Of a DNA stretch of 64,000 bases, positions 3,657 to 18,002 are shown piece by piece. The DNA lies in IMG/VR virus record IMGVR_UViG_3300027754_003435. One strand, given 5' to 3'. The stretch comes from a virus. Both the position numbers and the translations under genes were made by a program. The first letter of the stretch is position 1. Each line of letters starts with the position of its first letter. Below the pieces are notes generated by a model. The model saw only the letters and a program-made list of their open reading frames with translations. It was not told where the DNA came from and ran no database searches.

Positions 3657-5312
3657 TTACGAAATATAAAAATTTGCCCACGGCTTACGAAATATAAAAA
3701 TAGGTTCTTGTTTCCACCATTGACCTTTATGAAAAACTTTATTAGAAGTTCTTTCTGCTAATTTTTCTTGGTCAGAGTTTCCAATCATTCTACCCATCGC
3801 CATTCCAAATTTACCTACATACTCCATTCCCAATGATTCTAATATATCAATTGAATCTTTTTCAAGGTGAACTATTTTGTTAGTTGAAATTCTAATATCA
3901 GCTATATTCCAACAAAGGTAACGGTCTGATTTCAAATAAGTAACCGCAGTTTCTAATGTTGGGCGTAAAAAGTTATCACGCCAATCCGCATACTCACTAT
4001 GTGCTTTATACGATTGAGTTACATCATCGGAATACATTTCTCTGTTAAAGTATGGTGGTGAAGTAAAAACAAAATCTAACTTACCTTTATACTTTTGAAA
4101 TTTAGGATTGAATTGAATTGTTTCTGAACCATCTTGAAAAAGTTCGTATGTATGATTTTCATTTGTAACAAAGAAGTTTGAAGATACATTTGTGCCTCGC
4201 TCGCCTATTGATTTTAGAAAAAAGTCTGCAAGGTATTCATAACGACTTATTTCTAATTCATCAATAAAGTTATCTGTATTTGGGTCTGTTCCAACATAAT
4301 GCATTGGGCGACCAACAGACATAGCACCGAGTATCCTTCCACCCCAACCAGAACTTGGATCATATACCGTTACTGTTTCACTTGCAGGTATATGTTTTGT
4401 AAAGTGTTCATAAAGAAACTTTGCGGTCATAGGTGGAAAGTTTACAGCCGGTTGACAAAATGACATACGAAATACTTGTATTGCACTTGGAAATAGTTTT
4501 ATATTCTTTTCGTAAACACGAACAATATAAACATTTGCCCTCGGTTCAGAACCTTCTTTTTGTATATTAAATGTATCAGTTAAATCCGCTGGACTACCCA
4601 AAGTAAATAACATGAAGTCATCAATCAAACCTTCTGCTAAGAACTGTCTAATCTCATCTACCTTTATAGTTAAATACTTTTTGTATTTTTTACTTTGAGT
4701 TTGTAGAGTGCATGATATTTTAGAAATACGAACACCTTGTCCATCGAATCTTCCATCACCATTTTTATACGCCATGAAGAAATCACGAAGAGTTTCACCT
4801 TCTTTGAAGTAAGGATTCTTTACTTGATTTGAAGATAAAGACTTGCTGTACAAATACATAGAATCGTTGTAAACACTTCTCTTCATAATATGATGAAATG
4901 TTTCTTTCATAGAGTCTGTAAAATAATCGTAAATCGATTTACCAGAATCACTTCCCATGCCAGATGCAATTTTAGTTTTTAGCATTGTTGGAAAGAATTG
5001 ATTTGCAGCAGAACCAATTTTTGTGAAATTAGCAATGACTCCAATCATATCAGAGTCATTGCCGTCTTCCACACTATGAAAAATAGATGAAGCGTTGAAC
5101 TGACGGAGTTTCGAGAATGATTGATTAATCTCTTCCTCAGTTCTACCAACGACTGGTGGTTTCCCATTGTTATCCCAATCAGTTAGAATCCTCATTCGTA
5201 AATCTTCTGCCCATTCATAAAACCTGTTATCGTCAAATGTAACCAGTTCACCATACGTTATGTTTGATGGCCAGGACAGAATATCACTTTTTTCATAGAA
5301 ATACTTTTTCAT
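3657..5312 (-). CDS. SAM-dependent amino-type DNA methyltransferase (SPPY), long form
   Basis: Motif I VYDPSSGWGGR followed by motif IV FVFTSPPYF; C-terminal WKQEPIFIFRK. Confidence 0.75.
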   Translation of the reverse strand: MKKYFYEKSDILSWPSNITYGELVTFDDNRFYEWAEDLRMRILTDWDNNGKPPVVGRTEEEINQSFSKLRQFNASSIFHSVEDGNDSDMIGVIANFTKIGSAANQFFPTMLKTKIASGMGSDSGKSIYDYFTDSMKETFHHIMKRSVYNDSMYLYSKSLSSNQVKNPYFKEGETLRDFFMAYKNGDGRFDGQGVRISKISCTLQTQSKKYKKYLTIKVDEIRQFLAEGLIDDFMLFTLGSPADLTDTFNIQKEGSEPRANVYIVRVYEKNIKLFPSAIQVFRMSFCQPAVNFPPMTAKFLYEHFTKHIPASETVTVYDPSSGWGGRILGAMSVGRPMHYVGTDPNTDNFIDELEISRYEYLADFFLKSIGERGTNVSSNFFVTNENHTYELFQDGSETIQFNPKFQKYKGKLDFVFTSPPYFNREMYSDDVTQSYKAHSEYADWRDNFLRPTLETAVTYLKSDRYLCWNIADIRISTNKIVHLEKDSIDILESLGMEYVGKFGMAMGRMIGNSDQEKLAERTSNKVFHKGQWWKQEPIFIFRKPWANFYIS

Positions 5313-6031
5313 TAATTGTTTTCCAATTTTACTAAGAAATATCTTGATTCAAAATCGTCAATATCAAATTCAACTTTTGCTAAACCTTGCGAGGAAACTT
5401 TCATTGAACCACCGTTCAAATCTTTATTTGCTGATAGAATTTCTTTGAAATACTTTGCTGAAAAAGAAATTGGTTCAAAATCTTGTTCACAAATACAATC
5501 AATATCAATTGAAATTCTATTGGAGTTTATGTTAGCATAACCAATTACAATTTGCCATTTATTAGTCTTACCGTTTTTAAGAATAGTAAACTTCTCAATA
5601 TCAGATAAAGCAGATTTAGCTTTGATAAATTTATCAATAAAATCTTTTGTAATTGACATTTCTAATTCAAATGGTGGAAGTTCTTTCAACTCTGGTGCCG
5701 GTGGAATAACTGCCAAATCGGCTAACATATAATTAACAGTTGTGGATTTATCGCTTAACGTTAAAGCGAATGCTTTATCGTCTGCACCATTAATTTTAAA
5801 TTCAATAGTGTTACCAAGAACACCAAGAAGACTTGTAAGTAAGTTTGTATCATACACACCAAACTTTGCTACTTGACCGCTGAAACTTTTTAACTTAACT
5901 TCCCCTACTACACATTTGTCATCAGAAATAAAACGAGTTGCTAATCCACCGTTTGCATTCCAAGCAACAGATTGAACTAATTTACCCAAGTGATATTTAC
6001 TAATGAAGTTTAATAACTTTGATTTTTCCAT
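5312..6031 (-). CDS. Sliding clamp (T4 gp45-like)
   Basis: FGVYDTNLL, FSAKYFKEIL, KVSSQGLAKVEF; 239 aa; located between polymerase and clamp loader. Confidence 0.8.
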   Translation of the reverse strand: MEKSKLLNFISKYHLGKLVQSVAWNANGGLATRFISDDKCVVGEVKLKSFSGQVAKFGVYDTNLLTSLLGVLGNTIEFKINGADDKAFALTLSDKSTTVNYMLADLAVIPPAPELKELPPFELEMSITKDFIDKFIKAKSALSDIEKFTILKNGKTNKWQIVIGYANINSNRISIDIDCICEQDFEPISFSAKYFKEILSANKDLNGGSMKVSSQGLAKVEFDIDDFESRYFLVKLENN

Positions 6032-6062
6032 AACACGAATCCTTTTATAATAATAATTTCCA

Positions 6063-6070
6063 CAAATATA
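6063..6070 (-). promoter_or_regulatory. Bacteroidota-type -7 promoter element TATATTTG
   Basis: Context AATAATTCAGTATATTTGTG matches the elements at 3622 and 14924; upstream of the clamp gene. Confidence 0.55.
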
Positions 6071-6079
6071 CTGAATTAT

Positions 6080-8596
6080 TTAGAAAGTAAAAAACTTTTG
6101 TGCAACCTTTTTACTTTCCGTTGGGAACTCCCACTTCATTGATTCATAGAAACCTCTTAGTTTACCATCCAACTCCGATACAAATAATTCGTTTGCATCA
6201 AAGTAATTTTTAATAAATTCTATAATTTCTACTGGATCTGAATCTCCTCTGAATGCTAATAGTTCTAAACCGTATGAGTTATTTTTTAAATATACCCACT
6301 TAACTTTATCACCGTTTTTAATTGCTGGAAACTTCGGTGGACAATTAAATAACTTTAATAGGTTATTATAATTCATCGCTGCTTTAATATGTGCAGGCGT
6401 TCCTTTTCCAAACTTACCCAAAACATCAACTGTTAAACGTTCTTGATATTTCTTAATATCTTTTATAGAAGAGTTCTTTGCCAACTCACCATACAGAACT
6501 GTACCTAAATCTCGTTTGAATTTTATAATATCTTCATCTAATTCTACTTTATCTCTACCTTTCAGAATATCAATTAGTACCGCCTTCATAAACTTCTGAA
6601 ATGATTTTGGAAATGAAGAGCGAACAATATCCAATCCCTTAACTTCTAACTTGTCCATCGGAACACCGTTGTCAGAAATAATCCATAATGCATATCGCTT
6701 TTTCTTTTGCCAGAAACCTGTACGTCCAATCATCTCTTGTTTAATTTCTAAGCGATGTTTATCCGTGTTGAATACTTTCTTTGCAAATATATTGTAGAAC
6801 TCATTTACATAATCTTGAACTTCGGTTGCAATCTCATAAATCTTTGGAGTCATCAACTCAATATCGTTAGTATCAATATCAGGAAATCTATTCTTTACCA
6901 ACGGTAAACAAGAAACAAACACAGAATCGGTATCAACATATTGTACGTAATCAATATTATCTGTTATCAGTTCTTTATTATACTTCATGTTAATCGCTGC
7001 TTCAGTTTTCTTAATTACAGTCTGACCAGAAAGTGTAACTGCTTCCGCATTATCAATATCATAGAAGCGAAATGCAGGCAAACCAAGCACACCATAGAGT
7101 GAGTTGAGTAGAATCTTTTGAACAAGTTGTCTTTTCTTATAGAATTCATACTTCGCTGTATCACCTTCTTTACCCCATTTTTTCATTTCATCTTTATACT
7201 GAACCCGCTTGTCAAACCAATCACTTAGAATTGCAGGAATCAATCCAACCTTATCGGAACTATACATCACCCCATTGGAAGCAACGGTATATTTGTATTT
7301 ATCCAAAAACGCTTTTAACTTTTCTTTTGAAACCATTTCACCAGCAACGGAATATTCTTCAATGTTACCACGAATAAAATCTTCAGCAGACCAGTTATCG
7401 ATTTTAGCAATCTTTGTTTCTGGAGAAATATTCAAAGTCATAATAATGGATGGATACAGAGAAGTTAAATCTAAGTCATACATCCATTCGTAGCGGCCGG
7501 GAATTGGGTCTTTAACAAAAGCACCAATAAAACCTTGTTGACCACTCTCTCGTAACTCTGCCATCTTCTCTTGTCTATCCGCTGGCTTATTCGGTGCTAC
7601 AACACTTCCAACATTTTTCAGATACGATAACAACGCACCCTCAAGATACTTTGAAGAGTAAACAAAATCCTCGTATGGAACATGACCAACGTGACAAATA
7701 CCACGCACTAAGTCTATATACTGCAACTTCTTGTCTAATTCAAGAACAAGTTCAACGTCAGTTATATTATATTCTATAAAAGTTTCAATATCGTTTTCCA
7801 TCAAATCATCTAAGTTACCTTCATACTCAACCTTACCACGTCCTAACTCAGTCATACAAACCGCATTAAGTGCATACGATGGTAGTTCTTTATAAGAGAA
7901 CTTTTTATAAACAGTCATGTAATCTAATACAGAAATACCAGCAATACTCCATCGGTTTCTATAAGGCGAAAAATACATTTCATTTATAGGTGACATACGA
8001 TGCGCTTGCTTCTTACCAAGAACTCTCTTTATTCTATTATGCAAATATGGAATATCGAATGCATCACAATTCCAACCAGTCATAATGTGCGGTTGAATTT
8101 CTTCTATCCCTGCTAAGAATTTAAGTAGAAGTGTTTTTTCATCTGGACAAGAAACTATTGTTTTATTATCCGTAGTTCTATTTCTCAATCGCTTCTGTTT
8201 ATCCAACACTAACATAGTGTAATGGTTAGTTGCTGAATCATGGTAAGCGATAGAAGTTATTTCATTGTTACCCTCAGTTGCATCTGGTGTACCTGTAATC
8301 ATTTCAACCTCAATATCGAATGCCATTGTAACAATTCCTTTCGATGGAATATCGGATTCATGGTACATATCAACAAGAATGCGCGTAGTTTCAGCAACAT
8401 CAGATTCAAATAAGTCTGGATCATTCTTTGTGAATTCAGTTATCTTAGATAATTTATCGCCATACAATGAAACAAACTTACCGTTTGAATCTCTACGGTA
8501 GGCATATGGAGTATAGTTAAAATACAAAAGTCCTTTAGTATCATCCCATACCCACGCTTCTTTTGTATTTGTTTTAACAAATATATTTTGATACAT
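6080..8596 (-). CDS. Family B DNA polymerase (T4 gp43-like)
   Basis: Exo FDIE, GWNCDAFD, YNITD; pol DLTSLYPS, KILLNSLYG, YVDTDS. Start placed at 8596 (MYQNIF), 1 nt after the upstream stop. Confidence 0.97.
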   Translation of the reverse strand: MYQNIFVKTNTKEAWVWDDTKGLLYFNYTPYAYRRDSNGKFVSLYGDKLSKITEFTKNDPDLFESDVAETTRILVDMYHESDIPSKGIVTMAFDIEVEMITGTPDATEGNNEITSIAYHDSATNHYTMLVLDKQKRLRNRTTDNKTIVSCPDEKTLLLKFLAGIEEIQPHIMTGWNCDAFDIPYLHNRIKRVLGKKQAHRMSPINEMYFSPYRNRWSIAGISVLDYMTVYKKFSYKELPSYALNAVCMTELGRGKVEYEGNLDDLMENDIETFIEYNITDVELVLELDKKLQYIDLVRGICHVGHVPYEDFVYSSKYLEGALLSYLKNVGSVVAPNKPADRQEKMAELRESGQQGFIGAFVKDPIPGRYEWMYDLDLTSLYPSIIMTLNISPETKIAKIDNWSAEDFIRGNIEEYSVAGEMVSKEKLKAFLDKYKYTVASNGVMYSSDKVGLIPAILSDWFDKRVQYKDEMKKWGKEGDTAKYEFYKKRQLVQKILLNSLYGVLGLPAFRFYDIDNAEAVTLSGQTVIKKTEAAINMKYNKELITDNIDYVQYVDTDSVFVSCLPLVKNRFPDIDTNDIELMTPKIYEIATEVQDYVNEFYNIFAKKVFNTDKHRLEIKQEMIGRTGFWQKKKRYALWIISDNGVPMDKLEVKGLDIVRSSFPKSFQKFMKAVLIDILKGRDKVELDEDIIKFKRDLGTVLYGELAKNSSIKDIKKYQERLTVDVLGKFGKGTPAHIKAAMNYNNLLKLFNCPPKFPAIKNGDKVKWVYLKNNSYGLELLAFRGDSDPVEIIEFIKNYFDANELFVSELDGKLRGFYESMKWEFPTESKKVAQKFFTF

Positions 8597-8597
8597 T

Positions 8598-9758
8598 TTA
8601 TGCCTTTTTGAATACCCACATTGGTTCTGCAAATTTTGCTTTATCATCACAATCTATGCCAGTATCGTTCGGCCGTACTGCCATTTCCATACCCATCGTT
8701 CCTTCATATATACAATCAGATTTTTCTTTCATGTATTCTACCATAGGTTCACATATTTTCAAATACGACTTTGCTGGTCTATTATAAATGTCTGCAATAT
8801 TTACAATCATTGTACCACCGGATTTAAGAGTAGCCCATACATTATCCAACGCCTTATGTAAAAAGTTTTTGTTCCAAGAATCTATATTCTTGTACCGAAC
8901 CCAACTTTGTTTATCATCGTTTGAATATCGTTCTGTATCAAAGTAAGGAGGCGATGTAAATATTAAATCAACTTTACCTATCCACTCTGAATTATCCCAA
9001 TCTTCTGCGGGTGCTTCGTATAAATGTACTGATTTTTTCGTATCAAACCAACCTAATTGTTTAGAATAAAATTCAGATTGTTGTTTATAAACTTCATGAT
9101 TATTTGGTGCTGGATCTATTCCAATATATGTTTCTGCTTTATCCGATGCATAGAAACCACATAATCTATCACCCCAACCTGCTGAGAAATCCAATATTGT
9201 TTTAGCACCATACATATCGTATAATGCTTTTGCAACATTTGGTTTGAATTGAGAACAAACATATTTTCTAAGACTTAGTGAAGAACGAACCGCTGCTTTA
9301 TCAATCTTTTTAAATTTCAATGTATAGAACGCTTTCGATAAAGAAATCATAGAACGAAGAGAAATCCAACTTCTTACTGGACCAGGTGAGTATGCAGCAT
9401 CAACTTTCCAACGGTTTATTTGTTGAAAATAATTTGATGCAGAGTTACCTACATTACTTCTTGAAAAGTATAACGGTTTTCCGTTCCATTCAAAATCTAA
9501 ATTATAACTGTGTCTAGCTTTCCACTTACCTTCTTTCAGCATTTCTTTCCACTTAATCGCCTTCAACTTTTGAAACTCAGAAGTTGTATCTTCAATTGTA
9601 ATATCAGCATAAGGCAATGGGTATGTCATCGCTATTTCAGCGAGACGGTCTTTGACATATTCTTTATCAAATGTTTCTTGAATATACTTCCATTCTATTT
9701 CATCAATCGCAAGGTAAGGACTCATTCCTTTGAACTTGTCAAAGTAATCTAAATACAT
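8598..9758 (-). CDS. SAM-dependent amino-type DNA methyltransferase (SPPY), short form
   Basis: SQFKP, ILDFSAGWGDRL, LIFTSPPYF, EPMWVFKK; clear paralog of 3657..5312. Confidence 0.75.
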   Translation of the reverse strand: MYLDYFDKFKGMSPYLAIDEIEWKYIQETFDKEYVKDRLAEIAMTYPLPYADITIEDTTSEFQKLKAIKWKEMLKEGKWKARHSYNLDFEWNGKPLYFSRSNVGNSASNYFQQINRWKVDAAYSPGPVRSWISLRSMISLSKAFYTLKFKKIDKAAVRSSLSLRKYVCSQFKPNVAKALYDMYGAKTILDFSAGWGDRLCGFYASDKAETYIGIDPAPNNHEVYKQQSEFYSKQLGWFDTKKSVHLYEAPAEDWDNSEWIGKVDLIFTSPPYFDTERYSNDDKQSWVRYKNIDSWNKNFLHKALDNVWATLKSGGTMIVNIADIYNRPAKSYLKICEPMVEYMKEKSDCIYEGTMGMEMAVRPNDTGIDCDDKAKFAEPMWVFKKA

Positions 9759-10382: not shown

Positions 10383-11012
10383 TTAAATTTCTATATCTTT
10401 CCAATTTTTATTTGCAATAGTTTTCATTGCCCACTTACCCATGTTGTTTGCAACACTATAATAGTTATGGTTTCCAATTTGTTCAAGCAAGTCAGATTCA
10501 AATATAAAAGGTCTGCCTTTTACTTTTGTCATGAATTGCCCACCTTTGCCCATTTGTCTATCATTGAATTGCATTGTTCTTCCATATCCTGGATAATCTG
10601 AACACTGGTTTGTACCGATTAGAATAGAACCATCACCACCCCTTGGTATAAGCAAAATAGAATCTTGCATATACTCTTCACCCAATCTTCTTAAATCTGC
10701 TTCAAGTTTTCCTTTATCTTGTAAATCAACAACAAAGAAAACATCTTCACGTACTTCAATTGCTTCAGGTGTTCCGTAGTTTTCAATGTAAGCACCTTTA
10801 ACTGCTGTTGTTCCATACCCCATCATTTCAAGTTTTGCTTTTAATTGCGCATTTCTTTTTTTGTTATCCTGTAATGCGTAGGGTAAATCTTCAGGTAAAC
10901 CACACCCTTCTTTAGAGCGGAAGGCTGTAATTGTACCGCAATCGTGCATTTCCATGTGGTAAACCAATCTCGATAAACCACTTTCTTTTAATATGTTACT
11001 TAGTTTTGACAT
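10383..11012 (-). CDS. Conserved large-phage protein with KLxxILxE leader
   Basis: SGLSRL..H...CGTITAFR and Y.QDSIL motifs; preceded by the late-type motif. Confidence 0.65.
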   Translation of the reverse strand: MSKLSNILKESGLSRLVYHMEMHDCGTITAFRSKEGCGLPEDLPYALQDNKKRNAQLKAKLEMMGYGTTAVKGAYIENYGTPEAIEVREDVFFVVDLQDKGKLEADLRRLGEEYMQDSILLIPRGGDGSILIGTNQCSDYPGYGRTMQFNDRQMGKGGQFMTKVKGRPFIFESDLLEQIGNHNYYSVANNMGKWAMKTIANKNWKDIEI

Positions 11013-11059: not shown

Positions 11060-11566
11060 TTATTGTTTATCCGTTGAACCAAACCCACCTTGGCCACGGT
11101 TTGTATCGGATAGTTTCTCTACTTCTACGAATTTTACTCTTGGATACGGAATAATAACCAATTGTGCAACTCTATCGCCAACAACTGGAATAGTTCCTTC
11201 TACCGCTCCTGAATAAGGCAATTCAAATCTCACAAGGATTTCACCACGATAATTTGAATCTATAACTCCAACTGAATTTTTCAATGAAACTCCGGCTGCT
11301 GCTTTTGTGATTGAACTTCTTGGAAATAAAAGTCCAACATGATTCGCTGGAATCTGTACCGCAATACCAGTTCCAAATTCCATAAAAGTATCTGTAACTC
11401 TAAATGAAGTCGCTGTTAAATCCATACCAGCATCACCGTCTTGTGAGTATTCTGGTTTAACTGCGTCTGGACTTAACTTTACATACGTAATAGGTAAATT
11501 TAATCTGTTCTTAAATGATTCCTCAGCCAAACTCTCATCCCATCTTCTTTGCCACGTCTGTACCAT
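11060..11566 (-). CDS. dut: Trimeric dUTPase
   Basis: DAGMDL, PRSS, GVIDSNYRGEI, RVAQL, RGQGGFGST. Start placed at 11566, 8 nt after AAGGAG. Confidence 0.95.
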   Translation of the reverse strand: MVQTWQRRWDESLAEESFKNRLNLPITYVKLSPDAVKPEYSQDGDAGMDLTATSFRVTDTFMEFGTGIAVQIPANHVGLLFPRSSITKAAAGVSLKNSVGVIDSNYRGEILVRFELPYSGAVEGTIPVVGDRVAQLVIIPYPRVKFVEVEKLSDTNRGQGGFGSTDKQ

Positions 11567-11588
11567 TTTCATAACTCCTTTATTTATA

Positions 11589-12428
11589 TTAAATCGATTG
11601 TAAATATGAACCGCCAATATTCCAAAATAATACTTTTCCGTCTAATTTCCCAATGTTTTCTTCTAACCAGAACCACATTTTTTTATCCCAAAACTCATTA
11701 CAATCAAACGGTACTGAATAATCCAACATCATATCGTCAAAAGCAAATGGCGATTTATAAATGTGAATATTATTATTACCACCTGCTCCATTTTGTTCTA
11801 ATATTTTTCTTGTTGATTTTATCGATGACATTGTAATACCATGAACTTGCCTTCTGTTACTAACAACATCTCGCCAATCTGTATAATGTAAGAATGAATT
11901 TATAAGTCCAGAACACGTTACACCACTACCCATAGAAACAACTAAGTGGTCAAAGTCATTATCCGCCAATACTTCTTTCATTCTACTACCCATGTATGCA
12001 ATATACATTGGATGATTGAATGCGTATGGTAACATTTGCCATCCATTCTCTGCTGCTTGTTTCTTTACACGATTGTTTAGTATCGCCATTATGTTTGGTT
12101 TAAGTGGATTTAATTTTCCACCGTTACCCAATACTTTTTCAATTAAGTTTGGAGGAAACTTCTTTGTTTCCGGATAAGAAGAAATAAATTCTATGCCTTC
12201 TTCTTTACAAAGTCCAGATAGAACCCAACCTGTCCAACTTCCGTATACTGAAAGGTGTGTTAGTGGTTTGCTTTTATCAACAGCAGGACTTCTTAGAATT
12301 TGTTTAATTCCTTCTATCTTTGCCCACCTTGGATAATTTATTCCATCACCAACTAAATCATCACGCTTAACCCAAACTTTCTTTCCTTTGAGTTCGTATT
12401 CTTCAATCGGTGTTTGTATTAAATCCAT
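11589..12428 (-). CDS. Fold-type-II PLP-dependent enzyme (ACC deaminase / D-cysteine desulfhydrase-like, divergent)
   Basis: TPIE..WVKRDD, putative Schiff-base Lys in RWAK, phosphate loop SMGSGVT, C-terminal VLFWNIGG. Confidence 0.75.
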   Translation of the reverse strand: MDLIQTPIEEYELKGKKVWVKRDDLVGDGINYPRWAKIEGIKQILRSPAVDKSKPLTHLSVYGSWTGWVLSGLCKEEGIEFISSYPETKKFPPNLIEKVLGNGGKLNPLKPNIMAILNNRVKKQAAENGWQMLPYAFNHPMYIAYMGSRMKEVLADNDFDHLVVSMGSGVTCSGLINSFLHYTDWRDVVSNRRQVHGITMSSIKSTRKILEQNGAGGNNNIHIYKSPFAFDDMMLDYSVPFDCNEFWDKKMWFWLEENIGKLDGKVLFWNIGGSYLQSI

Positions 12429-13924
12429 TTGAATATTCCACTATTATTACCAATAAGTTCGCCCTTCATTTTCTTATGTGAGAATCCATGAATCTTTTCA
12501 AAGTTATCACCAATTACATGAAGCATCTTTTTTCTATTACGAAAGTTTATTTCTTTATCATTTAGAATTATATCTTCAATATATCCTTTGAAGTTTGTAC
12601 CTTTTTGAAAAGCACGTTTCTCTTGTTCAATAACTTCTTTAGGCAAGTACGGTCTGAATGCATCTGCGAGTGGAAGTTTCCATTGAGATTTATCAGATAA
12701 AAATTCGTTCGTTAAGTTAGTAGTGTAATCTAAAAAATCAATATCGAAAAACGGGCAACGTAATTCTATTGTTCCATAATACATGAAAACAGTATTACCG
12801 CGTAATAAATTACCATAGTATTGCTTTTCAAATAATTTCTTTCTAATATCCGACCAGTCTGGCTTCTTACTAAACATCCGTATCATTCCATAAGAACCAT
12901 ACGCTTCATCAGATCCTTCACCACTAAACGCAACTTTTATTCCATCCTTTGCCATCTGTTCCGCTATAAACGATTGTAGAATACCAACTTGCATTTGAAC
13001 TGTAGATGGATATTCAATAACTCGTATTGATTCTAAAAATCTTTGCTTCAAGAGTTCCACGTTTCTTGGAACTAAAACTTCAACCAATTGAACACCTAAA
13101 TGTTTTGCAACTATTCTTGCGTATTTCAAGTCAGGTGAATCTTCATCAAAAGCAATTGTATACGCTTTTAAGTTTGGTATTTTAGTAGATAATAAATACG
13201 TTATAACAGCGGAATCAATCCCACCAGACAACGAAGTTGCAATAGGTACATCAGATAACAATCTTTTACTTACCGCGTTCTCCAGTAGATTGTACGTTGT
13301 TGTACTGCATTCTTCATGTGTTTCGGGTGAAGTTGTTTCGTTTGAAAAGTTAAAATAGTAATCTTTATGAACTATTATTTTATCGGTACTCAGATCAATT
13401 TCAATCAAAGAATTTTTCGGTACAAACTTAATGTCAGCGTTCGGTAATTGTTTAACAATAGATTTTATTTCACTTGCAATAATGTAAGTGTTATTGTTAA
13501 AAATATAGAGTGGTAACTTACCAACCCAATCACGTGAAAGAATTAGCTTTCCGTTATCCCAAATAACAAAAGAAAACATACCGTTAAGTCTTTTCAATTC
13601 TTGTTCTTTGTACACAAACAGTATAAGTTCTGAATCTGAATTTGATTTAAACTTATATCCCCTTTCTTCGTATTCTTTTCTTAGTTCAGGATAATTCCAT
13701 ATTTCGCCATTAACTACTAAGTGAATACCTTTCCATTCCATCGGTTGATTGCCTGCGGCAGAAGTATCGTTAATGGCAAGGCGATTATGTCCAAGTATAA
13801 CTTTTCTATCGCCCCAAGAAAATTCTTTTATACCACGGTTATCTTTACCACGGTGAGCGATGGTTTCCAACATATTATCAACATCAGTTTTAGTATAACC
13901 GACGGTTGCTATTATACCGCACAT
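12419..13924 (-). CDS. Asparagine-synthetase-B-like glutamine amidotransferase / ATP-dependent amide ligase
   Basis: Ntn Cys2 (MCGI), HNRLAI, NGEIWN, RDWVGKLPLY, PP-loop SLSGGIDS, SGEGSDE, ELRCPFFD. Confidence 0.9.
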   Translation of the reverse strand: MCGIIATVGYTKTDVDNMLETIAHRGKDNRGIKEFSWGDRKVILGHNRLAINDTSAAGNQPMEWKGIHLVVNGEIWNYPELRKEYEERGYKFKSNSDSELILFVYKEQELKRLNGMFSFVIWDNGKLILSRDWVGKLPLYIFNNNTYIIASEIKSIVKQLPNADIKFVPKNSLIEIDLSTDKIIVHKDYYFNFSNETTSPETHEECSTTTYNLLENAVSKRLLSDVPIATSLSGGIDSAVITYLLSTKIPNLKAYTIAFDEDSPDLKYARIVAKHLGVQLVEVLVPRNVELLKQRFLESIRVIEYPSTVQMQVGILQSFIAEQMAKDGIKVAFSGEGSDEAYGSYGMIRMFSKKPDWSDIRKKLFEKQYYGNLLRGNTVFMYYGTIELRCPFFDIDFLDYTTNLTNEFLSDKSQWKLPLADAFRPYLPKEVIEQEKRAFQKGTNFKGYIEDIILNDKEINFRNRKKMLHVIGDNFEKIHGFSHKKMKGELIGNNSGIFKWI

Positions 13925-13925
13925 A

Positions 13926-14624
13926 TTATTTATTGAGTATGGTTAATAATTCTTTAGTTTTTTTAAGTTCATTGTTCATCTTACCGATGTGGCAGGAACA
14001 CGCTAATACACTAACCTTTCCTAATTCTAAATCACTTTCTTTTGCTAAAAACTTACCCATACTAACTAAAGCAGAATAATCAGCGTAACCACTCTTAGAA
14101 ACTCTATTGGAACGTAGAACAGAAGTTAAATACAACTTACCATTCCGTGGCTTCAAGTCAATCATTAACATACAAGGTTGAGAATACGGATTGCGTGAAT
14201 CACGTGATGGGTCAAATATAATTAACTCACAACGTTTAACTGCTTTACCTTGTTTCAAAATCTTAATAACGTTTTCAACTTGATTAAACGTACCTTGCCA
14301 ACTAATCATTCTTCCCCAATAGGACTGATGCCAATGATCTTTAATGAACTGGTATTCCAATCCTTCTTCTACTTGAAAGAAATCGTTAATTGGTTTTTTA
14401 GGTTTAGGTTCTACGAAAGTAACCGAAGAAGCAAAATCAATTCTATCATCACCCATTATTTCTCTGAAGTGTGAATCAAACCAATCATCACTTTCAAATT
14501 GAGTAATTTCCATCATTACATTTAATTCTTCAATTAATTCACCGACTTTTTCCCCTTTTTCTAACAAATGCTTAGAAACTTTTACCCAAGCGTCACCGGG
14601 AGATACCGCTTCTATAACTGTCAT
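13926..14624 (-). CDS. Thymidylate-synthase-fold pyrimidine C5 transferase (dCMP-hydroxymethylase-like, atypical)
   Basis: YWGRM, catalytic PC (SQPCML), RSNRVSKSGYADY with Asp at the specificity position, SCHIG in place of the HxY motif. Confidence 0.75.
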   Translation of the reverse strand: MTVIEAVSPGDAWVKVSKHLLEKGEKVGELIEELNVMMEITQFESDDWFDSHFREIMGDDRIDFASSVTFVEPKPKKPINDFFQVEEGLEYQFIKDHWHQSYWGRMISWQGTFNQVENVIKILKQGKAVKRCELIIFDPSRDSRNPYSQPCMLMIDLKPRNGKLYLTSVLRSNRVSKSGYADYSALVSMGKFLAKESDLELGKVSVLACSCHIGKMNNELKKTKELLTILNK

Positions 14625-14633
14625 ATATCACCA

Positions 14634-14891
14634 TTATAAATTTTCAATTGCAATTTCGTAATTTCTTTTAGAAACTAAACCAGTAATTCTGTTTACTTCA
14701 ACACCGTTTTTCATAAATATTACAGTAGGAACTCCACGAACACCATGCATCGATGCTTCATCTGGATTATTGTCCACATCAATAAGTTTATAATTGACAT
14801 TTGGACGTTTAAGTAAGATTTCACTCATAATGGGTTTAAGTTGTTTACATGGCATACACCAAGAGGCTGTGTAATGTTTAATGGTAATCAT
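14634..14891 (-). CDS. Thioredoxin
   Basis: WCMPC, VRGVPT; 85 aa. Confidence 0.93.
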   Translation of the reverse strand: MITIKHYTASWCMPCKQLKPIMSEILLKRPNVNYKLIDVDNNPDEASMHGVRGVPTVIFMKNGVEVNRITGLVSKRNYEIAIENL

Positions 14892-14923
14892 ATCCGTCCT
14901 TAAATGAAAATGAATTATTTATA

Positions 14924-14931
14924 CAAATATA
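14924..14931 (-). promoter_or_regulatory. Bacteroidota-type -7 promoter element TATATTTG
   Basis: Context AATAATTCCGTATATTTGTA; heads the thioredoxin-TS-AsnB-PLP-dut operon. Confidence 0.6.
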
Positions 14932-15254: not shown

Positions 15255-18002
15255 TTATATACTAAGTCTTATATGCACGTTTACTTCATTGTGTAAAGTT
15301 TTCTTTACAGGTCTACTCAATTTTGCAATGGCGAGTAAGTTTCCTATATCATCATACAAACCAATAGTTGTTATATACACAACTGGATCTTGTATAAAAC
15401 ATGGATATTTTAAAACTTTTATATTTTCAAAATTTACACCTTCGATGAATGTAGTACCACCAGTTTTAAGAGTTACAACTTTTGGCTTGGAAAAAGTTGG
15501 ATTATTACTGAAGTTACTTACATAAACTGGAACTTTAACAGAATAATGTGATGTATTTTTATAAACTACATTTCTAGCTTTCATAGGATAGCCCAATGCT
15601 GCTGCACCACTTATTGCGGTATGTATTTTGAATGCGTTATCACCTTCAATATTACTACCAGTAACCGTGTTAAAGTTTAAGTACGAATTTAACATATTTG
15701 CATCTAATTGTATAATGCCTAATTGAGGAAATACTTTTCCGTATGTTGTGAACTGAGGATTTGTATCTATACTGCCAGTGCCATTGTTATATATACCGTT
15801 ACCTAAACTACCACTTACTATATCATATGAAAATACATTTGGAGAATCTAAGGAAACTTGGTCAGTATTATCTAATGAATTATCAATTAACTGTAATATT
15901 TTACCCTGATTGTTCACTTTTACATTACTGCCAGTATGGTAATTATTCGCAAAGAAACTACCAGATAACTCAGCTAAATTTATTTGAAAATTACCAACAT
16001 CCAATTTATCACCGAACCACTTATTGCGGAAATTTATTAAATAAATATCATTTGAAACAGAAGAAGTAGTGTTATTATAATAAGTAAAATCTTGGCTATA
16101 ATCTTCGGTACATAGTAATCTATACTGTGAATAGGTTGATCGTGTTGCTGTATTCTTTGGTGAAAATTCATCATGTAACGAACCAGAACCATTTTTATTA
16201 CCGTAAACAACTGAAAAATAAGGTGTCTGTGTACAAGAATCACAATCTTCTATATCATAAAAATATGAACTACTGCTTGTTGAGCCGGTAATATAGCAAT
16301 TTAATTCGTCAACACCATTAAAAAGTCCATTAACAGTTCGTAATAAAGTATTTTTTATTATATCATTCGCATCAAATCTTACAACAGTTTTGTGCAAGGA
16401 TGGTGGAAATTTACATGGATACGAACTAACAAGAAAAGAAGATAACGGCTTTAGTAAATCTGAGTTTGTAAGATTTACGGTATTGCCATTCAGTTGAGTT
16501 GGAACGGGCAATAGTTCGTGTAATTCAAGTGGCGTTTGTCTTCCTTTCTTATATTGACTAAAGACTTCTGCTTTTACTTGGTCTGGACAAATACGATACG
16601 TTTCTTCATACGCTACTAATCTACAACCACACTCAGCAAATTCTTTAGCAACTGCTGGTTGAAGATATTTAATATCTATACAAGAACAACCTTGTAAATC
16701 TCTGTTGAGTTTTTGATCATCATATTCTATGATTGTTTTTAGTACGGTTTCAATACTAGAAGAATAGAACGTTGTATAATTTACACCATCTTCTTGCATA
16801 TCCGCTGTTATGCCAGGTAATAATGTCTCATTTACTGTAGGTGATCCAACGAAATTTGGATTTCTAATTGAAGCGTCACCTATACATACTTTTTTGTAAT
16901 ATACCTTATAGGTTTCTGTAGTTGTATACGTTGCTTCAAGTCCATCATAACAAGTTCTATATGGAATAGGTACTCTTCGTTGAATATTAACCAACATTCT
17001 AGTTGGAGAAAATATTTGCACATCATCGTCATCTGGTAATTTTACATAATCACGTATTTTATTTAACGTGTAGGATATATCTTTTAAATTATTTGCTTTT
17101 TTTATACTATCCAATAAATCTAAAGATATATTGTATGCGTTTGTTGTAAGAAAAGAAGAGAGTATTTTATCTTTATTGAATAGATTAGGGATTAATGCCA
17201 ACACATCATCTTGTGTTATTAAATTATTATTTGAATCCGCAAATCTGAATTTTGGAAAACCACTACCAACGGGATAATAAGCATTGTCTGGTTGAACTTC
17301 AATGTAAATTTTCCAAGTATCATCAGTAGTTGTTACACCATTTCTTATTATTGTGTATATTACACCCTCATTAGTCCACAAACCAAGTGGATTATTTGCC
17401 CGTAAGTCATTTGGCTTTTGATTATAAATCGGTGCTATTGTATTCAATGACCATTGCCAGCGTGTACCATCTTCTTTTAATATAGAAGTATCATCTTCTA
17501 CAATGTGAACCCCATTAGTATCTTTCTTTCTAAACTTGAAATCTCTAGCTAGAATAGCAACTGTTTTGAACGTAGATACAAAACGACCACCTGTTTGAGT
17601 ATCAGTCCAATTTAAAGTAGTAACCAAATCTGAGTATGGAAATCCACCGTCAAACCAGATAGAACCATCAGACAATATTATATAATGATTACCATTTTCT
17701 AACTTACCGTTTATAGCATCTGTGATACTCAAATCATTTATAGTAGCGTTATCATACAAATACGGTAAGTTAACAGAAATCAACGCCCCATCTTTTGCAT
17801 ATAATTTTTTATCAATAGTAATCGGTGTAGTATCTGCTAATGTGGATCTTACCAATTTCTGCTTAGAAACCAAATACTTGATAGGTAATGTATATCTCCA
17901 ATTACCATTAAAATCCGTTAGTTCTGATTGGAATGGTAAATTTTCTCTTTCATATTCTACCCATGGGGTATATTGACACAATGATATATTTTGATCTGCC
18001 AT
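15255..18002 (-). CDS. Large virion structural protein (baseplate/tail-associated, putative)
   Basis: C-terminal YITTIGLYDD.GNLLAIAKLSRP resembles collar/baseplate attachment domains; N/S/T-rich. Confidence 0.6.
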   Translation of the reverse strand: MADQNISLCQYTPWVEYERENLPFQSELTDFNGNWRYTLPIKYLVSKQKLVRSTLADTTPITIDKKLYAKDGALISVNLPYLYDNATINDLSITDAINGKLENGNHYIILSDGSIWFDGGFPYSDLVTTLNWTDTQTGGRFVSTFKTVAILARDFKFRKKDTNGVHIVEDDTSILKEDGTRWQWSLNTIAPIYNQKPNDLRANNPLGLWTNEGVIYTIIRNGVTTTDDTWKIYIEVQPDNAYYPVGSGFPKFRFADSNNNLITQDDVLALIPNLFNKDKILSSFLTTNAYNISLDLLDSIKKANNLKDISYTLNKIRDYVKLPDDDDVQIFSPTRMLVNIQRRVPIPYRTCYDGLEATYTTTETYKVYYKKVCIGDASIRNPNFVGSPTVNETLLPGITADMQEDGVNYTTFYSSSIETVLKTIIEYDDQKLNRDLQGCSCIDIKYLQPAVAKEFAECGCRLVAYEETYRICPDQVKAEVFSQYKKGRQTPLELHELLPVPTQLNGNTVNLTNSDLLKPLSSFLVSSYPCKFPPSLHKTVVRFDANDIIKNTLLRTVNGLFNGVDELNCYITGSTSSSSYFYDIEDCDSCTQTPYFSVVYGNKNGSGSLHDEFSPKNTATRSTYSQYRLLCTEDYSQDFTYYNNTTSSVSNDIYLINFRNKWFGDKLDVGNFQINLAELSGSFFANNYHTGSNVKVNNQGKILQLIDNSLDNTDQVSLDSPNVFSYDIVSGSLGNGIYNNGTGSIDTNPQFTTYGKVFPQLGIIQLDANMLNSYLNFNTVTGSNIEGDNAFKIHTAISGAAALGYPMKARNVVYKNTSHYSVKVPVYVSNFSNNPTFSKPKVVTLKTGGTTFIEGVNFENIKVLKYPCFIQDPVVYITTIGLYDDIGNLLAIAKLSRPVKKTLHNEVNVHIRLSI

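Follow-up and report, generated by a model that had tools for sequence, protein, structure and literature searches.

A virus-restricted module of TS-like, AsnB-like and PLP enzyme genes as a candidate pathway to hypermodified cytosine in phage DNA

In phage M6, gp52 was described by Lee et al. as a pyridoxal 5'-phosphate (PLP)-dependent decarboxylase which converts C-alpha-glycinylthymidine in DNA to 5-aminoethyl-deoxyuridine, with Lys36 as the proposed Schiff-base residue; gp51 of the same phage is an amino-acid:DNA transferase (aGPT-Pplase2), gp53 a radical S-adenosylmethionine (SAM) isomerase and gp54 a 5-hydroxymethyldeoxyuridine (5-hmdU) kinase (PMC8989533). In the 5-carboxymethylcytosine system, CmoY, an asparagine-synthetase homologue described in 2025, ligates glycine to the carboxymethyl group, and a second CmoY cluster with a glutaminase domain has been proposed to make a primary amide (PMC12783734). 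Among enzymes of the thymidylate synthase (TS) fold, Asp at the position of N177 in E. coli ThyA is the mark of cytosine enzymes, and the position of D169 holds Asp in methylases and hydroxymethylases and Asn in hydroxylases (PMC13326640). The present study concerns a 64,000-nucleotide (nt) stretch of the IMG/VR virus record IMGVR_UViG_3300027754_003435 (the whole stretch analysed, hereafter the window), in which a gene for a TS-like enzyme is followed by genes for an AsnB-like glutamine amidotransferase and a PLP enzyme. We propose, with a probability of roughly 60%, that these genes form a module encoding a virus-specific pathway to a hypermodified cytosine for phage DNA. A preliminary description of this locus had not recognised the three-enzyme combination, and we too found no paper in the literature describing it; the use of an AsnB-type enzyme in phage DNA modification, in contrast, does have a precedent in CmoY (PMC12783734).

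The genes and the promoter-like motif on which the analysis centres are as follows (window coordinates).

14924..14931, minus strand: TATATTTG promoter-like motif, upstream of the thioredoxin gene
14634..14891, minus strand: thioredoxin (Trx) with a WCMPC motif (PF00085, E 1.7e-15)
13926..14624, minus strand: TS-fold enzyme of a distinct subfamily (PF00303, 26.7 bits against a cut-off of 24.3)
12419..13924, minus strand: AsnB-type glutamine amidotransferase (GATase_7, E 1e-32, and Asn_synthase, E 2e-42)
11589..12428, minus strand: fold-type II PLP enzyme, homologue of M6 gp52 (phrog_7093, E 1e-25; PF00291 below its cut-off)
11060..11617, minus strand: trimeric dUTPase (PF00692, E 1.9e-16; the ATG at 11572 is probably the true start)
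8598..9758, minus strand: SPPY methyltransferase-like protein (motif I DFSAGWG, motif IV SPPY)
3657..5312, minus strand: second, longer SPPY methyltransferase-like paralogue, to which the methyltransferase of locus L032 is 44.5% identical

The first five genes had been read as one cassette in the preliminary description, and the positions of the open reading frames (ORFs), together with the profile matches, place all five where that account put them and in the families it named; all lie on the minus strand. The tight coupling it reported is likewise borne out by the ORF coordinates, with 1 nt between the TS-like stop and the AsnB-like start and a 10-nt overlap of the AsnB-like and PLP genes. 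The promoter motif which it had seen upstream of Trx is indeed present and enriched: TATATTTG occurs 17 times in the window against 7.75 expected, a count reached by 0 of 100 shuffles, and several copies stand upstream of genes. We take this motif to be similar to the Bacteroidota -7 promoter element TAnnTTTG.

Conservation of the cassette was assessed in 63 IMG/VR viral loci retrieved via the AsnB-like protein (60-100% identity), and frequencies are given over the loci with room for the neighbour concerned. A survey of this kind had been suggested as a check on co-occurrence. The TS-like gene was directly upstream of the AsnB-like gene in 52/52 loci and the PLP gene directly downstream in 58/58, a linkage which exceeds chance by far. 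The SPPY methyltransferase-like gene, which had been placed outside the operon, proved to be a near-constant partner, with a homologue within 6 kb in 36 of the 38 loci. The conserved core thus consists of the TS-like, AsnB-like and PLP genes, with the SPPY methyltransferase-like gene as a near-constant fourth partner. The five-gene unit originally envisaged therefore holds for its three central genes, whereas Trx and the dUTPase are inconstant partners. Trx falls outside the module because in relatives it directly follows the ribonucleotide reductase genes, often apart from the triad. The dUTPase, which has all five canonical motifs and is the sole dUTPase of the genome, lies beside the module only in the closest relatives. 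Both are ordinary nucleotide-metabolism genes which share the transcript and are not members of the module. The data support the triad as a virus-restricted conserved module; it is a frequent element of aquatic viromes, its protein clusters at 90% identity number in the hundreds, and it occurs in genomes of up to ~290 kb. A DNA-level search of cultured phages gave no match to the cassette.

In one locus, L030, the TS-like and AsnB-like sequences are joined in a single ORF (5350-7482, 710 amino acids (aa)). This fusion was rejected as a Rosetta-stone argument, as it arises from an in-frame deletion which removes the C-terminal helix of the TS-like protein and the Cys2 nucleophile of AsnB; a defective copy or an error of assembly is the probable explanation. 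A complex prediction run without controls for two TS-like copies and the AsnB-like protein scored 0.00 and carries no weight in either direction.

The TS-like protein belongs to the TS superfamily by both its model and its profile score, although the Pfam family PF00303 covers its residues 98-226 only. A profile built from 21 members found as its best PDB sequence match MilA, a CMP 5-hydroxymethylase (E 1.4e-6). The AF2 model (pLDDT 80) was closest in fold to the phage flavin-dependent deoxycytidine monophosphate (dCMP) 5-hydroxylases 9iqc and 9iqu, followed by MilA and T4 dCMP hydroxymethylase, and Foldseek gave a probability of 1.0 and TM values of 0.63-0.69 against 9iqc, 9iqu and MilA. The diagnostic positions (E. 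coli ThyA numbering, from PMC13326640) read as follows.

C146: Cys151 in the TS-like protein; catalytic nucleophile retained
R166/S167: Arg171/Ser172; phosphate binding retained
N177: Asp182; cytosine type
D169: Arg174; the usual Asp or Asn is absent
L143: Ser148; a non-acidic residue
Y209: Gly214; sugar-contact Tyr of the HxY motif lost

All of these positions except 148 and 214 are invariant in the 21-sequence family. When 1.84 billion representative proteins were searched exhaustively with a profile, 1,104 matches were returned, among them only 13 full-length clusters of the subfamily (E <= 1e-44). Cys151, Arg171, Ser172, Lys177, Tyr180, Asp182 and His212 are kept in 13/13 clusters; Pro150, Cys151, Arg171 and Ser172 are invariant both there and in the 21 sequences, as is Asp182, which aligns with the Asp of MilA. 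More distant homologues mostly carry the canonical Asp at position 174, and most have Asn at 182. The genome also encodes ThyX (158 bits) and, ThyX apart, no TS homologue besides the TS-like gene. As ThyX is present, the TS-like enzyme is not taken to be the thymidylate synthase, and the specificity residue Asp182 together with this separate route to dTMP makes cytosine the probable target. The pyrimidine target proposed earlier is thereby narrowed to a probable cytosine.

With neither Asp nor Asn at the D169 position, the enzyme departs from canonical ThyA, hydroxymethylases and hydroxylases alike. Position 174 is Arg in 9/13 clusters and Ala in 4/13, and exactly those four clusters have Arg at 214. 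Thus the Arg appears to have relocated between positions 174 and 214, and we infer that the co-substrate pocket needs an Arg which can be supplied from either. It is in the pocket holding this Arg that TS binds its pterin. Since the folate-binding Asp is replaced by Arg, the usual use of methylene-tetrahydrofolate seems to be lacking, and this replacement suggests that the co-substrate or product is anionic and may carry a carboxylate; the partner of the TS-like enzyme is likely to be anionic and non-folate.

The match to MilA, which comes from nucleoside-antibiotic biosynthesis, also raises the question of whether the product enters DNA at all. The module could instead make a modified free nucleotide or nucleoside, or modify RNA or tRNA, for instance to yield a MilA-like 5-substituted cytidine with an inhibitory, signalling or anti-defence function. 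The loss of the sugar-contact Tyr is in keeping with such a role, as is the failure to find a dCTPase or a dedicated deoxynucleoside monophosphate (dNMP) kinase in the genome. In contrast, the module is placed among replication genes, beside PolB, DNA methyltransferase-like genes accompany it in nearly all cases, and the nearest relatives of its PLP and AsnB-like proteins are enzymes for which action on DNA has been shown or proposed. A product other than virion DNA is therefore considered unlikely.

The AsnB-like protein retains both of its active sites. Its glutaminase residues Cys2, Arg48, Asn72-Gly73-Glu74 and Asp97 are intact and invariant, as are the synthetase motifs SGGIDS (the PP-loop, S233-S238) and SGEGSDE. 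It fails to reach the E. coli-type model NF006949 (250.9 against 499), and the segment aligned to E. coli TTIRAST reads STVQMQV, without the Arg. The acidic SGEGSDE pocket, which in human ASNS binds the amino group of aspartate (PMC6748925), is retained, and for this reason the AsnB-like protein likely acts on a substrate with a protonated amine nearby. Its closest relative in a cultured phage is gp124 of Streptomyces phage TurkishDelight (32% identity, E 3e-71), the gene for which lies between C5-methyltransferase-family and CmoA-like genes and beside two ParB genes, an arrangement which is that of the 5-carboxymethylcytosine system (PMC12783734). The AsnB-like protein is closest to the glutaminase-bearing CmoY branch; its own gene does not stand beside CmoA and CmoX, and the resemblance is thus one of homology to a CmoY-context protein only.

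Genomic context was examined for 12 of the 13 TS-like clusters, with neighbours classed by BLAST, and variant modules were found in more distant relatives.

L079: methyltransferase-like gene, synthetase-only Asn-synthase homologue, possible ATP-grasp gene, TS-like::radical-SAM fusion (676 aa)
L080 and L082: synthetase-only homologue, TS-like, radical SAM, one methyltransferase
L083: methyltransferase-like, TS-like, synthetase-only homologue, PLP enzyme, pyridoxamine 5'-phosphate oxidase
L086: methyltransferase-like, TS-like, PLP enzyme, synthetase-only homologue
L085: TS-like, full AsnB, PLP enzyme
L084 and L087: TS-like, then radical SAM (short contigs)
L081: TS-like alone, on a contig too short to display partners
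L034 and L028 (close relatives): the triad plus the same radical-SAM family

On every long-enough contig the TS-like gene is accompanied by an adenylating enzyme of the Asn-synthetase type, and PLP and radical-SAM enzymes alternate or combine around this pair. The Asn-synthetase-type enzyme of the variant modules is often without a glutaminase domain. Such synthetase-only forms cannot be glutamine-dependent asparagine synthetases, which argues for a role of the family within the module, like that of CmoY.

Several details of these loci deserve mention. In L079 (6001-8031, protein P0148) the TS-like domain, residues 1-218, is fused to a radical-SAM domain with a CxxxCxxC motif; the latter domain shares 38% identity with the free-standing radical-SAM ORF by the triad in L034 and L028. 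The radical-SAM gene of L034 (2447-3868) lies between the AsnB-like and PLP genes, and the first ~16 residues of its product copy the PLP N-terminus, as if insertion had duplicated the start of the PLP gene; for the radical-SAM partner, the PDB gave no more than a marginal sequence match. In L083 the pyridoxamine 5'-phosphate oxidase gene (8402-9013) directly follows the PLP gene, which fits a need for PLP supply. A gene for an HD-domain protein (HHDLGK, no Pfam match) follows the PLP gene in L032 (8415-9188) and its relatives and is absent from the genome of the window. Upstream of the variant module of L086, a viral contig, are three tandem ADP-ribosyltransferase-like genes (1-2259; PF03496).

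The PLP enzyme is a true full-length homologue of M6 gp52, which bears out the link to ViI/M6-type hypermodification drawn in the preliminary description. The phrog_7093 profile matches it end to end (residues 4-272, E 1e-25), and in BLASTP it shares 29% identity with M6 gp52 over 96% of its length (E 7e-27). A tblastn search of cultured phages returned 64 records, mostly Pseudomonas M6/YuA-type and Bordetella phages, the M6 match being gp52. The AF2 model (pLDDT 91) has the type II fold, with D-cysteine desulfhydrase and 1-aminocyclopropane-1-carboxylate (ACC) deaminase as top fold matches. Lys37 aligns with gp52 Lys36 and is invariant in 30 homologues, so that homology, fold and lysine agree in placing the protein in the gp52/ViI gp226 family. 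A reading in which the lysine is replaced by Arg34 was considered and rejected, as both profile and pairwise alignments put the invariant Lys37 at the Schiff-base position. Metagenomes hold more than 300 homologues of the PLP protein; no relative was found among 185,579 prokaryote species genomes scanned.

This distribution bears on whether the genes might be ordinary metabolic ones, namely a dCMP hydroxymethylase or alternative thymidylate synthase, a true asparagine synthetase and a cysteine/threonine-type PLP enzyme, brought together by chance or carried as auxiliary metabolic genes. The AsnB-like protein does exceed the curated asparagine synthase cut-off (TIGR01536, 291.6 against 267.1), and source databases label the PLP protein as cysteine synthase or ACC deaminase-like. 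However, the PLP family was not found in the prokaryote genomes scanned, the synteny is invariant and genes overlap among proteins diverged to 45-60% identity, the TS-like enzyme lacks the folate-binding Asp in a phage which has ThyX, and the variants replace AsnB by homologues devoid of a glutaminase domain. Plain metabolism is thus a very improbable explanation.

The SPPY methyltransferase-like gene stands just before the TS-like or just after the PLP gene in relatives, often coupled, and in L032-type distant loci an orthologue of the second paralogue (3657..5312) is directly upstream of the TS-like gene. The protein at 8598..9758 carries both DFSAGWG and SPPY, as expected of N4/N6 amino-methyltransferases; PF01555 scores 29.9 against a cut-off of 26.7 over motif IV only, and a PDB sequence search gave no relative. 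The close association of this gene with the triad could be taken to mean that it is the SPPY protein which installs a non-methyl group from SAM (e.g. 3-amino-3-carboxypropyl) on a DNA base, to be decarboxylated by the PLP enzyme or amidated by the AsnB-like enzyme by analogy with diphthamide, while the TS-like enzyme makes a separate C5 change. The gene is near the module in 36/38 loci and, in L032-type loci, is immediately coupled to the TS-like gene, the phage has its own SAM synthetase, and, from general biochemistry, an aminocarboxypropyl group would offer both a free amine on which PLP chemistry could act and a carboxylate that could be amidated. In contrast, motifs I and IV resemble those found in ordinary amino-methyltransferases, the invariant core is the TS-like and Asn-synthetase pair, and a Dam-like methyltransferase takes the place of the SPPY protein in at least one variant. 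We consider this arrangement decidedly unlikely.

A pathway to hypermodified cytosine can be envisaged in four steps. The TS-fold enzyme would attack C6 of a cytosine mononucleotide, most likely dCMP, via Cys151 and attach a carbon substituent at C5. The AsnB-type enzyme could then adenylate a carboxylate of the side chain and convert it to an amide with ammonia from glutamine, as its CmoY relatives would do on 5-carboxymethylcytosine. The gp52-like PLP enzyme may work on an alpha-amino-acid part of the side chain, either removing CO2, as gp52 does, or building it by beta-replacement; both this and the amidation could take place on the nucleotide or on DNA. Finally, the SPPY methyltransferase-like proteins would act on DNA, at the modified base or beside it. 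The product would likely be an amide- or amine-bearing 5-substituted cytosine which shields the genome from host nucleases. The preliminary description had likewise assigned C5 addition, amidation and amino-acid tailoring to the three enzymes, and these specific chemical steps remain inference.

Several points weigh against a hypermodified cytosine in the DNA. The case is built on homology and gene linkage, not on an observed enzyme activity or modified base. Loss of the HxY Tyr, with Gly214 in its place, leaves the ribo- versus deoxyribo-specificity of the TS-like enzyme uncertain. As the AsnB-like protein passes the TIGR01536 cut-off and retains the acidic SGEGSDE pocket, free aspartate is still a possible substrate. 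One carboxylate cannot serve both an amidotransferase and a decarboxylase, which leaves the order and targets of these two enzymes unfixed. Furthermore, searches of the genome found no MazG-type dCTPase, dCMP deaminase or thymidylate-kinase-type dNMP kinase, and complete replacement of dC in the style of T4 is therefore not supported.

More tentatively, the TS-fold enzyme might represent a new pyrimidine C5-alkylating type, which would use a non-folate carboxylate co-substrate held by the relocatable Arg to equip dCMP directly with a side chain of carboxyalkyl or amino-acid type; provision or reshaping of this side chain would fall to the PLP enzyme, or to the radical-SAM enzyme in other lineages, and its subsequent amidation to the AsnB-type enzyme. 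We regard this as possible but doubtful. If true, widespread aquatic jumbo phages would contain a previously unknown base, such as a carbamoylmethyl- or alaninamide-type 5-substituted cytosine. Which restriction and CRISPR systems are able to cut a phage depends on the hypermodifications of its DNA, and the enzymes involved serve DNA labelling and sequencing technology. Identification of the product would probably extend the known natural DNA bases by one and might reveal a new reaction of the thymidylate synthase fold.

The whole viral record comprises 177,312 bp and was rated complete by CheckV. It has a G+C content of ~33%, the minus strand carries nearly all genes, and a tail sheath and major head protein mark it as a phage with a contractile tail. 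The genome encodes PolB, class II ribonucleotide reductase, a DnaB-like helicase, RecA/UvsX, gp32, a clamp loader and SAM synthetase. The last of these (MetK, 373-1542 in the window) is joined by an S-AdoMet lyase family protein (10383-11012; PF23780, E 1e-10). MetK makes SAM and the lyase-family protein would destroy it, so their timing or targets may differ. The ORF adjoining MetK (1530-1913) resembles DUF1599, 'nucleotide modification associated domain 1', only weakly and below the threshold (E 5e-4). A 915-aa ORF (15255-18002) immediately upstream of the cassette matched no Pfam or PHROG family; it looks swapped or fast-evolving, as it shows 31-35% identity in relatives whose cassette genes are 95-100% identical. 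Unlinked to the module is a Zeta-toxin/AAA_33-like P-loop kinase of 262 aa (genome positions 129412-130200, L077:5412-6200, minus strand), which could be a nucleotide or DNA-base kinase.

The locus can now be compared with the systems described above. M6 gp51, gp53 and gp54 gave no tblastn match at E <= 1 in the whole 177-kb genome, which extends to the entire genome the earlier remark that the hmdU kinase and amino-acid:DNA transferase are absent; the radical-SAM isomerase is equally missing, and no glucosyltransferase search was made. TIGR00740 (CmoA) and PF00145 (C5-methyltransferase) likewise had no match in this genome. The module thus joins TS-fold, gp52-type PLP and CmoY-type parts, yet without the starter enzymes of the published pathways.

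With the thymidine hypermodification of M6 and ViI (PMC8989533, PMC5889632) the module shares a TS-fold start, a PLP enzyme of the gp52 family, a site among nucleotide-metabolism and replication genes and, in some relatives, radical-SAM partners. In contrast, its genome is without the 5-hmdU DNA kinase, the aGPT-Pplase2 transferase and the gp53-type isomerase, its TS-fold enzyme is of the cytosine type and not a dUMP hydroxymethylase, and an AsnB-type amidotransferase is an obligate partner. T4 gp42, MilA and the 5-hydroxy-dCMP synthases (HY126 AfhB, 9iqu/9iqc, and RB69 gp48; PMC13326640) resemble the TS-like enzyme in fold, catalytic Cys, phosphate-binding Arg and Ser, and Asp at the base-specificity position. 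The module enzyme differs from them in having Arg174, or Ala174 with Arg214, in a neighbouring polar segment, SKSGY, which replaces the hydrophobic folate-contact residues, and in the lost Tyr of HxY. Finally, as in the CmoA/CmoX/CmoY system of Synechococcus phage S-B43 (PMC12783734), an Asn-synthetase homologue is proposed to amidate a carboxylate on C5 of cytosine, and to the glutaminase-bearing CmoY branch of TurkishDelight the AsnB-like protein is related by its 32% identity with gp124. Unlike that system, however, the module's genome has neither CmoA nor a C5-methyltransferase; a TS-fold enzyme working at the mononucleotide level would account for its C5 chemistry, and the module adds a PLP enzyme and SPPY amino-methyltransferase-like proteins.

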